A DNA stretch of 64,000 bases, taken from contig OZ252299.1 in the NCBI GenBank assembly GCA_965250285.1, positions 2,336,001-2,400,000 on the forward strand, in the 5' to 3' direction. Shown piece by piece: positions 8,575 to 15,867 of the stretch. A program made the position numbers and the translations under genes. The DNA comes from Myxococcota bacterium (GTDB lineage: Bacteria; Myxococcota_A; UBA9160; UBA4427). The notes beneath the pieces are model-generated. The model made no database searches, was not told where the DNA came from, and saw only the letters and a list, made by a program, of their open reading frames with translations. Numbering within the stretch: position 1 is the first letter of the stretch; every line of letters begins with the position of its first letter.

Positions 8575-9429
8575 TCAGAGCTCGCCGGTCTTGAGCAGCT
8601 CCATCGGGTCGCGCGTATCGACGACGCCGAGATAGCCCCCGCCCTGCATGAGCGCATCGTGCGCGGCATAGCCGAGCAGCGCCTGCGCCTTCTCGGGCAA
8701 CGTGCGCGCGATCTCGGGCGGCACCGACAGGTAGTTGTTCTCCTCGGTGCGCAGCCAGCCGAGGTTGAAGCTCATGTGCATGCCACGACGGCGCGTCGAC
8801 TCGGTCGAGTTGGGCCCGCCGCCGTGGATCGTCGACCCGAGATACACGATGGCCGAGCCGGCCGGCATCTCGGCGACGGCGATCTCGTCTTCCTGCGCCT
8901 CGCGATCGCGGGGCCAGCGGTGGCTGCCCGGAACGATGCGTGTCGCGCCGTTCTCGGCGGTGAAGTCTTCGAGCGCGATGATCGAAGCCACCTGCAGCTC
9001 GGGGTGCGGCTGCGGCATGTGGATCCAGACGAGCTCATCACGATGCAGCAGCTGTGGCTCACTGCCCGGCCCACGATCGAGCACGTGCGCGACGTTCAGC
9101 TGGTAGTTTGCGCAGCTCGGCAGCAGGATCTCATCGCACACTGCCAGCAGCGCCGGATGCACGAGTACTTCTTCGGCGAACACCCGCGACTTGGCTGCGA
9201 CCCCGGTGATGTGCCGCGTCTGCGCACCCATGAACCACTCGACGGCCGGCGAGAGGACCGCCTTGCCCTCTTCGGTCTTCTCGAGATGCGCGTCGATCTC
9301 GGCGTTGAACCGCACGAGCACGTCGGCCGCGAGAAAATCGTCGAGGATGACGACCCCCTCGGCCTCGAGCTGCGACACGATCTCGGACGTCGGCGCGCTG
9401 GCCTTCAGATGTTCGACGTGGGCTGCCAT
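8575..9429 (-). CDS. Phytanoyl-CoA dioxygenase (PhyH) family Fe(II)/2OG dioxygenase
   Basis: QLLHRD (HxD), DFTAENGATRIVPGSH, HGGG, GWLRTEEN. Confidence 0.92.
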   Translation of the reverse strand: MAAHVEHLKASAPTSEIVSQLEAEGVVILDDFLAADVLVRFNAEIDAHLEKTEEGKAVLSPAVEWFMGAQTRHITGVAAKSRVFAEEVLVHPALLAVCDEILLPSCANYQLNVAHVLDRGPGSEPQLLHRDELVWIHMPQPHPELQVASIIALEDFTAENGATRIVPGSHRWPRDREAQEDEIAVAEMPAGSAIVYLGSTIHGGGPNSTESTRRRGMHMSFNLGWLRTEENNYLSVPPEIARTLPEKAQALLGYAAHDALMQGGGYLGVVDTRDPMELLKTGEL

Positions 9430-9467: not shown

Positions 9468-10751
9468 CTACTCCGAAACGCGGCGGCCCCGTCGTCCATC
9501 CTCGCGCCGATTGCGTCGCGCGGCCGGACCGAGACGCATATCGGCGGTCGACGCACGCAGATACCGCAGCCCCTTGATCGGGCTGCGCAACAGGCCCCGG
9601 GCCACCTTGCGCAGCATCAACCTGCGCGAGTCCATGGTCGTCGGCATCGCACCCCGCATCTCGCCCGCGAGGCCATGACCCACGAATGGGGTGACGGGCA
9701 CGGTGAGCGAGAGCGTCTCTCGACGCGGGATGTGGCACGCTTGATCGTCACAGGCCTGATAGTCGACGTGCACGGCGATCGAGATCTCTTCGACCTCGAT
9801 GTCGTCCATCAACCCGGCGATGCGATCGTCGGCGACGACCGGGACCACGAAGTCGACGCGTCCATCCCACACGGCCAGCTCGAGACCGAGCGCCGGCAGC
9901 GTGAGGGGATGCGTCGGCGGCTTGCGCACCTCACCCACCTGAAGCCCTTCGGGCCCTGCGACCCGAATGCGCGTCGCCACCATGCCCTCGGGCACCGGCT
10001 CGTCGTAGATGTGCAGGCCCGCGGCGAGCTCGAAACGAACGACGATCTCACGGTGCACGGCGCCCTTCAGCGTGCCTCCGCCGCCGTGATACGTCGCCGA
10101 GACGCAAATCTGGTCGTCGCCCCCAGCGTCGGTGGGCTCGCCTTCGCCCAGCAGGATCTCGCCCAGCGCGCTGTCGATCATGCTCTCGGGCGATGATCGC
10201 TCGGCGAGGTTGCGATGGAAGAGCTTCTCGACGACTGCACCCGACTCGTCGAGCACGTAGGTGCCCGGGAACGGAATGCCGTGGAACGGAACCTGGTCGG
10301 GGGTGACGTTGTGGTTCAGCAGGCCGAGCTCACGGATCCACTTCGAGCCCTTGTCGCTCAAGAGCGGGTACGTGATGCCGTGGTGCCGCGCAAACTCGGC
10401 CAGCTCACCGGGACGGTCGTACGAGATCGCGTAGAGCTTGACTCCGGCGGCTTCGAATCTCGACTGCGCGTCTTGCAGCTCGACCAGCTGCGTCATGCAA
10501 GGCGGTCACCAGACCGCCGAGCGATAGAACACGACGGCCGCCCGGGCGTTGCCCCGGTCGGCGTGCAGGTCGAGCGGCACCCCCTGCGACGACTTCAGCA
10601 CGATGTCGGGAAAGCGCTCGCCGACGGCGGGTCTGGGGTCGAAGTCGTGCGACGGCGGGATGCGCTGACCGTCGGTCGCGCGCCGCGGGCCCACGAAACC
10701 GAACTCGTCTCGAAACTCGGGGTAGTCGTCGTAGCTGCGGCCGCTGCCCAT
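9468..10751 (-). CDS. Probable selenoprotein: AhpC/TSA redoxin domain (UxxC) fused to DsbD-N-like domain, 427 aa with Sec at residue 82
   Basis: ORFs 10506-10751 and 9468-10496 are in frame: TTC TAT CGC TCG GCG GTC TGG TGA CCG CCT TGC ATG = FYRSAVW-U-PPC-M; redoxin motifs lie on both sides of the TGA; C-terminal YQACDDQACHIP. Confidence 0.85.
10475..10491 (-). promoter_or_regulatory. Candidate bacterial SECIS hairpin
   Basis: At +15..+31 after the TGA: GCAGCT-GGTCG-AGCTGC, a perfect 6-bp stem with a G-led GGUC loop, resembling the fdhF SECIS apical loop. Confidence 0.7.
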
Positions 10752-10879
10752 CGTGTCTGCCTCGCATGAACCCGCGTGATCGTAGGCGATCGAGCGTTCA
10801 CCGGGCGAGTCGTTTCGGCCGGCACGAATCGCCTCTACGCTTCGAAGACGCGCGCCATGCGCACTGGAGACGTCCCCTC

Positions 10880-12127
10880 GTGACTGCCGCAGCCCCCTCG
10901 CCTCTCGGCGCCGCCCTGATCGATCGCGCCGCCATCGATGCTCCGCATCCGTTGTTCAGCCGGCTGCGCGCGGTCGGCCCACTCGTTCGCGTGGGCGAGA
11001 CCGGGGTGCATGCCGTCACGACTTGGGCGGCGATCGAAGAAGCCCTGCATCGCGAAGACGACTTCTCGGCCAACCTGACCGGGGCGCTGATGCGCGGCCC
11101 CGACGGCGCGCCGACGGTGTTCGAGTTTCCCGAAGGCGCCGTGTCGGCCAACGTGATCGCGACGGCCGACGAGCCGGCCCACGGCGTACACCGAGGCCTC
11201 GTCCAGCCGCGGCTGTCGACGGGGCGCATCGCGGCCTTCGAGGCGCGGCTCCGTGCGTGGACACGGAGCGAGACGCTCGGCTGGCTCGACGCGGGCGACA
11301 GCGACTTCGTCCCCGTCGCCGAACGCGTCCCGGCCTTCGCGCTCGCCGAGATGCTGGGCCTGCCCGAGCAGGACATCGATGACTTTCGCAAATGGAGCAT
11401 GATCGGCGGCGACATCCTCGCCGGCGACCTGCAGATGCAGCGGCTGGTCGCCGTCGCCGAAGAAGCGTCGCGCATGGCCGACTATCTCGAGCATCACCTC
11501 GAGGTCGCCAAGCGCGCACCGATCGACGGCGCCGATGCGCCACTCTTGCACGCGCTCGCGCGCGGCGTCACGAGCGGCGCGATCGGGCAGGAGGAGGCGG
11601 TCGGCATCAGCGGCGTGCTCTTCGGCGCGGCCGGCGAATCGACCGCGGCGCTGATCGGTTCGACGGTCCGGATCCTCGCGGAGCGCCCCGACCTCGCCGA
11701 AGCGCTACGCGCCGACCCGGGCTTGATCTCGCGCTTCGTCGAAGAGGTGGTGCGCCTCGAGCCGCCATTCAAGTTTCACTACCGCGTCGTCCAGCGGGCG
11801 TGCGAGCTGGCGGGTACGAAGCTCGCCGCCGGTGACCGGCTGATGCTGATGTGGGCGTCGGCCAATCGCGACCCCGACGTCTTCGACGATCCCGATGCGC
11901 TGCGCCTCGACCGCCGACATCCGAAGGCGCACATGAGCTTCGGTCGCGGTCCGCACTTCTGCGTCGGCGCCACGCTCGCGCGACTCGAAGCCCGCGTCGT
12001 GATCGAGGAGCTCCTCGCAGCCACCCGATCGGTCACGCTCGATGGCGCCGATGCGCCCGTCTACGCCGGGAGCATCTTCGTGCGACGCCTCGAACGCCTG
12101 CCGCTGCGGACCGAACGCGCGACCTGA
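10880..12127 (+). CDS. Cytochrome P450
   Basis: AAGEST I-helix, EEVVR (ExxR), FGRGPHFCVG heme motif; GTG after GGAG. Confidence 0.93.
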   Translation: MTAAAPSPLGAALIDRAAIDAPHPLFSRLRAVGPLVRVGETGVHAVTTWAAIEEALHREDDFSANLTGALMRGPDGAPTVFEFPEGAVSANVIATADEPAHGVHRGLVQPRLSTGRIAAFEARLRAWTRSETLGWLDAGDSDFVPVAERVPAFALAEMLGLPEQDIDDFRKWSMIGGDILAGDLQMQRLVAVAEEASRMADYLEHHLEVAKRAPIDGADAPLLHALARGVTSGAIGQEEAVGISGVLFGAAGESTAALIGSTVRILAERPDLAEALRADPGLISRFVEEVVRLEPPFKFHYRVVQRACELAGTKLAAGDRLMLMWASANRDPDVFDDPDALRLDRRHPKAHMSFGRGPHFCVGATLARLEARVVIEELLAATRSVTLDGADAPVYAGSIFVRRLERLPLRTERAT

Positions 12128-15627: not shown

Positions 15628-15687
15628 GCCGACCCCGCGACGCGCGCGGCGCCGCGCACGCTCCCGACTCGCGCCCGCGGCCGCACG

Positions 15688-15867
15688 TCAGTCGCGGGTG
15701 CGGTCGGCCATCGGTGTCGCGCGTCAGTCGCGGGTGCGGTCGGCCATCGGTGTCGCGCGTCAGTCGCGGGTGCGGTCGGCCATCGGTGTCGCACGTCAGT
15801 CGCGGGTGCGGTCGGCCATCGGTGTCGCGCGTCAGTCGCGGGTGCGGTCGGCCATCGGTGTCGCGCG
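15688..15867. repeat. Tandem repeat, 5 x 36 bp, equal to the last 11 codons plus TGA of the sulfatase
   Basis: Unit tcagtcgcgggtgcggtcggccatcggtgtcgcgcg at 15688, 15724, 15760, 15796, 15832; one g>a variant at 15793. Confidence 0.97.

Follow-up and report, generated by a model that had tools for sequence, protein, structure and literature searches.

A split gene for a predicted selenoprotein joining a peroxiredoxin-like and a DsbD-alpha-like domain in a Myxococcota bacterium

Described relatives and the split gene

According to the passages of PMC3322552 that deal with these proteins, the alpha domains of DsbD and ScsB receive electrons from a plain thioredoxin domain (gamma in DsbD) and then reduce TlpA- or Prx-like proteins. 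ScsB is described there as feeding TlpA, PrxL and PprX, and the Caulobacter PrxL as having no peroxidase activity. In the alpha domain of DsbD (nDsbD), Tyr40 and Tyr42 stand beside the disulfide, as stated in the part of PMC3137068 devoted to that site.

Relatives of the protein considered here have already been listed among predicted selenoproteins. In the GOS ocean-metagenome data published by Zhang and Gladyshev (2008; Dataset S1 of PMC2398784), the same signal-less subfamily stands under 'Prx-like 1', as judged from shared motifs, rather than an alignment, in the passages of the dataset that concern it. The dataset contains 13 RSAVWU strings; one read, JCVI_READ_1947008, placed between the headers for 'Prx-like 1' and 'Prx-like 2', has a signal-less N-terminus as in the relatives and continues into the Ig domain. 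The domain and motif of 'Prx-like 1' are those of the redoxin described below, but the entries are read fragments, and the passages of the paper on this group make no mention of a DsbD-alpha domain, of location or of a tail. Subsequently, Xu et al. (2021; PMC9402790, Fig. 2D) presented a U/CxxC Prx-like protein fused to 'DsbC' (Pfam11412) and bearing extra conserved Cys. This is the same two-domain architecture, to which the relevant part of that paper gives one sentence and the figure, with no mechanism. A catalogue from 2026 (PMC13188914) lists a PF00578 UxxC family, and the only mention of DsbD in its corresponding sections concerns the unrelated TsoB. The novelty implied when this DNA was first annotated was therefore too high, since both the subfamily (PMC2398784) and the fusion (PMC9402790) were in print as predictions.

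The gene that we analysed occupies positions 9468..10751 on the minus strand of the window, by which we mean the whole stretch of 64,000 nucleotides under study, and it agrees with the description of Xu et al. in possessing a U/CxxC Prx-like domain, PF11412 and extra conserved Cys. When translated from 10751 to 9468, the frame yields 427 residues with a single internal stop, the TGA at 10508-10506 (codon 82). Its context is VVFYRSAVW-TGA-PPC-MTQLVEL, in which the TGA takes the first position of W-x-P-P-C. The earlier note on this DNA had proposed that two annotated open reading frames are one frame broken by this TGA; the translation, the full-length homologues and the two domains spanning the read-through product all bear this out. 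TGA, and not TGC or TGT, is also the codon in contigs of three public runs, which may be source samples of the assembly: a contig of run X1 covers the whole stretch with zero differences, and pieces of X2 and X3 across the codon are identical too.

The ATG at 10751 is preceded, 8 nt upstream, by a GAGG ribosome-binding site (10760..10763, minus strand), as had been claimed. The accompanying claim that the internal ATG at 10496 has no such site was wrong, since an SD-like GGTGA lies 9 nt upstream of it; pairing with a generic anti-SD sequence amounts to -8.4 kcal/mol at the internal ATG and -5.9 kcal/mol at the true start. A better argument against an internal start than the absence of a ribosome-binding site is that Met86 is kept in only 6/32 loci, with W, F or L in the other 26. 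The start codon lies 71-81 codons upstream of the TGA in 31 of the 32 loci, the remaining one being truncated by a contig end. Neither a sigma-70-like promoter nor a terminator above chance was found at the locus.

Decoding of the TGA codon and the adjacent hairpin

The TGA (10506..10508, minus strand) would specify Sec82, the first residue of U-P-P-C, the motif being completed by C85 (10499-10497). At the position of codon 82, TGA occurs in all 32 aligned fusion loci and in 5/5 loci from other families (37/37), never TAA or TAG, and in all 37 the frame is open on either side of it; the count of fusion loci excludes two single-domain redoxins (L021, L051), an unrelated single-domain CxxC protein from Sulfurovum (L055) and a locus in which the codon is not covered (L050). 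It had been claimed that the TGA sits where the first Cys of a CxxC motif belongs, and this is supported by natural Cys forms among the full-length database homologues, P0004 (W-C-P-L-C) and P0006 (W-C-P-I-C), which align here; the DNA of one of these two, locus L056, reads TGC. The machinery for selenocysteine insertion, the search for which had been proposed as a check, is present: selA, selB, selD and tRNA-Sec were all found in the genome, each above its curated family cut-off. Moreover, selA occurs in 67 of the 68 family genomes, including all 30 with the fusion gene.

The bacterial SECIS-type hairpin reported previously, GCAGCT-GGTCG-AGCTGC, is indeed found at 10475..10491 (minus strand; +15..+31), with a 6-bp stem and a GGUCG loop beginning 20 nt past the UGA. 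It fits the bacterial SECIS model as given in the pertinent passage of PMC13188914, with a spacing of 20 nt, a 5-nt loop with GG first, a 6-bp stem and a folding energy of -8.9 kcal/mol. This energy was obtained for the hairpin folded alone, and the hairpin is the sole helix retained in the centroid fold. In isolation it does not rise above chance: the 71-nt hairpin region is less stable than its shuffles (z +1.77), and a hairpin of similar shape accompanies 768 of 20,000 random TGAs of the same genome (3.8%). We take it as real because of its conservation in relatives, not because of its own stability. Of 256 cells, 96.9% are paired in the stem, whereas slid controls reach 15.6-48.0%, and three loci have G-C to A-U double changes in the stem that are synonymous on both sides. 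The observed stem covariation is matched by 2/500 shuffles, in a control inflated by kinship. Stem codons are frozen (GAG in 32/32 loci, ACG in 31/32), whereas flanking codons are variable. In L056, the single Cys locus, the TGC codon is accompanied by loss of the 3' arm of the hairpin.

Could the TGA be a true stop, arisen by nonsense mutation or separating two translationally coupled genes, the second of which re-initiates at Met86? The SD-like GGTGA before Met86 would suit such an arrangement, as would the fact that databases hold mostly what follows the TGA, with 111 of 121 proteins beginning at M[TS]QLV. We nevertheless regard it as very improbable in view of the invariable TGA within an open frame, the replacement of Met86 in most loci, a hairpin that is kept with TGA and lost with TGC, and the completeness of the Sec machinery. 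A recent nonsense mutation, in particular, is at odds with the conservation of TGA and hairpin and with the Cys/TGA pairing seen among relatives. From these comparisons, the UGA is very likely read as selenocysteine; SelB would bind the hairpin and deliver Sec-tRNA at the UGA.

The window gene is a well-supported hidden selenoprotein from a known but uncharacterised family, and gene callers still split such genes. Since 111 of the 121 proteins begin just past the TGA, database entries for a widespread redox family come without the active site. The fusion protein falls below the cut-off of every one of the 18,950 NCBIfam models, and a curated model would mend the annotation of the split fusion genes. 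Knowledge of Sec decoding itself is left unchanged by this gene. Two other database proteins, P0158 and P0227, have W-W-P-F-C at the active site, which is probably a TGA read as Trp by a gene caller set to another code, and they would hence be hidden Sec forms.

The two domains and predicted location of the protein

The structure of the read-through product was predicted with AlphaFold2 on a 66-row alignment (mean pLDDT 94.3, pTM 0.92), and the model consists of a Bcp/AhpE-like redoxin followed by a DsbD/ScsB-alpha domain. The linker is modelled with confidence as well, and the prediction is of two domains packed into a single unit. The AhpC/TSA (Prx-like) thioredoxin-fold domain comprises residues 40-198 (10158..10634, minus strand); PF00578 matches residues 43-175, across the TGA, with 89.2 bits (cut-off 26; E 2.7e-25). 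In front of it there is a hydrophilic extension, residues 8-39 (10635..10730, minus strand; pLDDT about 93), with invariant D15, P22 and R30 in the alignment, which is not a signal peptide.

In fold searches with residues 40-198, the best matches were BcpB (Z 18.0, rmsd 1.9, 151 aligned) and AhpE (Z 17.8), and the likeness of the N-domain is to Bcp, AhpE and ResA, the nearest solved folds being those of Bcp/PrxQ, AhpE and TlpA/ResA/PrxL. It differs from true peroxiredoxins in lacking the PxxxTxxC/U motif (as this motif is worded in the part of PMC13188914 that defines it), in place of which it has F-Y-R-S-A-V-W-U-P-P-C. The Bcp model gives 39.8 bits against a cut-off of 140, and all NCBIfam Prx models remain below cut-off. 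A further difference from Bcp and AhpE is the invariant P162 within G-I-P-F-P-G, which we infer to be the thioredoxin cis-proline.

The second domain, a DsbD/ScsB-alpha-like immunoglobulin domain, extends over residues ~204-354 (9690..10142, minus strand). PF11412 (DsbD_N) matches residues 234-348 with 35.8 bits (cut-off 25). Queried by sequence with only the Ig domain, the PDB gave 0 matches, but the fold search with residues 204-354 did retrieve ScsB-alpha (6c29; Z 12.9, rmsd 2.6, 125 aligned) and DsbD-alpha (1jpe; Z 11.6, rmsd 2.6, 109 aligned). The profile match, the fold match and the invariance of both cysteines (66/66 rows) uphold the proposal that C334-D-D-Q-A-C339 (9735..9752, minus strand), a candidate second redox pair, is a C-X4-C of the DsbD-N type; Q[AG]C-x4-C is found in 114 of 121 proteins. 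Likewise invariant in 66/66 rows are Q332, P342 and H247-x-Y249 (10005..10013, minus strand), the last aligning with HIYW in the alpha domain of an ScsB-type protein from the same genome. The other invariant alpha residues align with that domain too, in a match that is weak alone (E 0.006). A five-residue duplication in the alpha Cys loop, resulting in three cysteines, was observed in a Planctomycetota homologue (L052:42-1301).

The fusion thus shares with DsbD-alpha (nDsbD) and ScsB-alpha the fold and the Q-x-C...C pair, along with two aromatic residues in positions like those of Tyr40/Tyr42, and H247, Y249, Q332, C334 and C339 would be the counterparts of nDsbD Tyr40, Tyr42, Gln101, Cys103 and Cys109. 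The spacing of the cysteines differs, being C-x4-C in the fusion and C-x3-C in the ScsB-type proteins of this genome, against C103-C109 in DsbD according to the relevant part of PMC3137068. Unlike DsbD and ScsB, the fusion has neither a membrane beta domain (no PF02683 match at the gene) nor an export signal, and its alpha-like domain stands C-terminal to the redoxin partner. Both centres are likely to be redox-active.

The absence of a signal peptide, noted before, was judged by hydropathy and holds in 32/32 loci, none of which has an N-terminal hydrophobic stretch: within residues 1-45, the best 11-residue value does not exceed 0.82, compared with at least 2.0 in exported relatives. Over 19 residues the best value for the fusion protein is 1.21, and the protein is predicted to be cytoplasmic. 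Residues 375-423 (9483..9629, minus strand) form three basic amphipathic helices in the model, a predicted in-plane membrane binder. The hydrophobic moment of this tail (0.74, the best in the core being 0.44) suggests that it may bind the inner face of the membrane, where it would hold the enzyme. In 30 of 31 loci, the best tail window carries a net positive charge.

Exported redoxin-DsbD-alpha fusions (RSADW-[U/C]xxC, in Acidobacteriota-rich clusters) have the same two domains and QAC-x4-C, but they possess signal peptides and have no amphipathic tail, their chain ending 19-34 residues past the Cys pair, and they fall on a separate branch of the tree from the signal-less, tailed proteins. In a quick tree of 45 hand-picked rows (SH-aLRT only, midpoint root), the 16 tailed signal-less rows make up one branch with SH-aLRT 99. 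Signal-less rows occupy several positions in it, so the tree does not establish a single loss of the signal peptide. A literature search, with most subscription papers outside its reach, returned no description of a cytoplasmic DsbD-alpha fusion or of an amphipathic tail in one.

Direction of electron transfer and genomic setting

We put at about even the chance that the protein is a cytoplasmic, membrane-associated reductase whose U-P-P-C attacks the substrate and is then recharged by the alpha Cys pair. Sec82 would reduce a disulfide or a (lipid) hydroperoxide, Cys85 would close a Se-S bond with Sec82, Cys334/Cys339 would reduce this bond, and cytoplasmic thioredoxin would in turn re-reduce Cys334/Cys339. 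The order from thioredoxin to C334/C339, then to U82/C85 and finally to the substrate is favoured, with roughly equal chances of being right or wrong. Because known alpha domains reduce TlpA- or Prx-like proteins, transfer from alpha to Sec is at least as likely as transfer from Se to S, and since the N-domain resembles the client class (TlpA, PrxL, PprX) and not gamma, the former is preferred. Two relatives, P0209 and P0214, keep CxxC and have no alpha Cys pair, a pattern to be expected if recycling by the alpha domain is an accessory function.

As a rule, Se-S bonds are reduced less readily than S-S bonds, and the lower potential of Se-S favours electron flow from Se to S. The protein would then be a soluble gamma-alpha module, in which the Sec redoxin is reduced first and C-x4-C subsequently reduces other thioredoxin-fold proteins, as cDsbD passes electrons to nDsbD. 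Relatives in which the redoxin has SxxC fit either this reverse direction or independent sites; the alpha pair is intact in P0162 and altered in P0126. The rigid model (pTM 0.92) would also suit flow from Se to S. In the passages of PMC3322552 on these pathways, electrons in DsbD go from a thioredoxin-fold domain to alpha, and a supply of free ScsB-alpha by CcdA through a Trx-like protein is proposed. On the other hand, the N-domain is Bcp/AhpE-like, unlike the W-C-I-T-C gamma domains of the genome's ScsB-type proteins, alpha-mediated reduction of Trx-fold proteins would be little needed in the cytoplasm, and relatives without alpha cysteines exist. Taken together, we consider transfer from Se to S rather unlikely.

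It is also conceivable that the two sites never meet within the chain, the alpha domain serving as a docking or structural module or exchanging with another subunit. In a noisy coevolution analysis (245 rows, Meff 162), the best inter-domain patch joined residues 180-190 with strands 234-239 and 270-274, and the top pairs (186-235 at rank 8, 184-274, 180-239, 190-235) fall outside the Cys loops. Residues 114-150 and 279-293 were joined in another, weaker patch. The high pTM implies a fixed arrangement, which might keep the sites apart, and some relatives have lost one or the other Cys pair. However, coevolution is blind at active sites, as invariant columns cannot covary, and the alignment is invariant at both Cys pairs as well as at H247, Y249 and Q332. 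Separate or in-trans sites appear improbable, slightly more so than flow from Se to S.

If the favoured order from alpha to Sec is adopted, a possible though doubtful scenario is that, in a cytoplasmic lineage, the periplasmic DsbD-alpha electron shuttle was taken into the cytoplasm as the selenoenzyme's own recycler and tethered to the inner membrane face by the amphipathic helices. Should it be true, this would be a self-contained Sec-dependent reductase of lipid hydroperoxides or disulfides, and the DsbD-alpha fold would have a cytoplasmic job. DsbD-alpha has been characterised as a periplasmic domain. The remaining interest of the family lies in an alpha domain that would work in the cytoplasm and in the predicted relay. 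Sec and Cys versions both occur naturally in the signal-less branch, a ready-made pair for assessing the contribution of selenium and the electron direction of a tethered alpha domain.

Matches to the fusion at E 1e-30 or better occur in 30 of the 68 family genomes, and in 17 of 301 genomes of a phylum sample, all inside the same class; named records with the fusion belong to Planctomycetota, Myxococcota and Actinomycetota. The wider family amounts to 370 clusters at the same threshold, with exported, tailed and other signal-less members, and AhpC/TSA plus DsbD_N clusters are listed in the ESM Atlas. In one member, P0126, the redoxin-alpha unit is tandemly duplicated, and the second unit has S-S-Y-C instead of CxxC.

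A PhyH-family dioxygenase gene lies 38 nt downstream (8575..9429, minus strand) and is possibly co-transcribed, and a cytochrome P450 gene is divergent (10766..12127, plus strand). Both were rejected as functional partners, not being conserved neighbours: none of the neighbouring families recurred in more than 5 of the 33 loci, which were mostly compared over flanks of 1.5 kb only. The surroundings thus give no pointer to the substrate. For the envelope, the genome has a separate set: two full ScsB-type proteins and one CcdA. A paralogue, G000:C1:1310794-1311990 (minus strand; L020:5789-7006), has the same W-TGA-PPC and hairpin, and is 47% identical; of the two copies, the tree places the one in the window further from the family's common form.

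Selenoproteins seem to be numerous in this genome. A genome-wide scan for UxxC/CxxU with a hairpin gave 206 candidates, mostly spurious, and the redoxin-like paralogues were picked by eye among the matches listed. A single-domain Sec redoxin with H-W-U-P-Y-C and hydrophobic N-terminal stretches (G000:C1:3873711-3874184, plus strand; L021) is encoded directly downstream of a ScsB-type dsbD gene (3870938-3873319) and may be a Sec-containing client of ScsB; another redoxin like it has its TGA at C1:2320738 (minus strand). Further likely selenoproteins, identified by eye, have TGA at C1 2490359 (plus), 4544202 (plus), 3754820 (minus), 3706377 (plus) and 305916 (plus), and comprise two F-W-U-P-P-C redoxins, an F-G-U-L-F-C redoxin, a PrdB/GrdB-like protein with V-U-P-N-C and an ArsC-like one with G-U-T-S-C. 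SelD (G000:C1:5312135-5314480, minus strand; L010) is a long fusion with C-G-G-C, like the Ndh-SelD form mentioned in a passage of PMC2398784. Elsewhere in the window, at about 15640-15800, a short tandem repeat is visible as repeated peptides in several frames. The genes flanking it we take to encode an HxlR-like regulator and a sulfatase-like protein.
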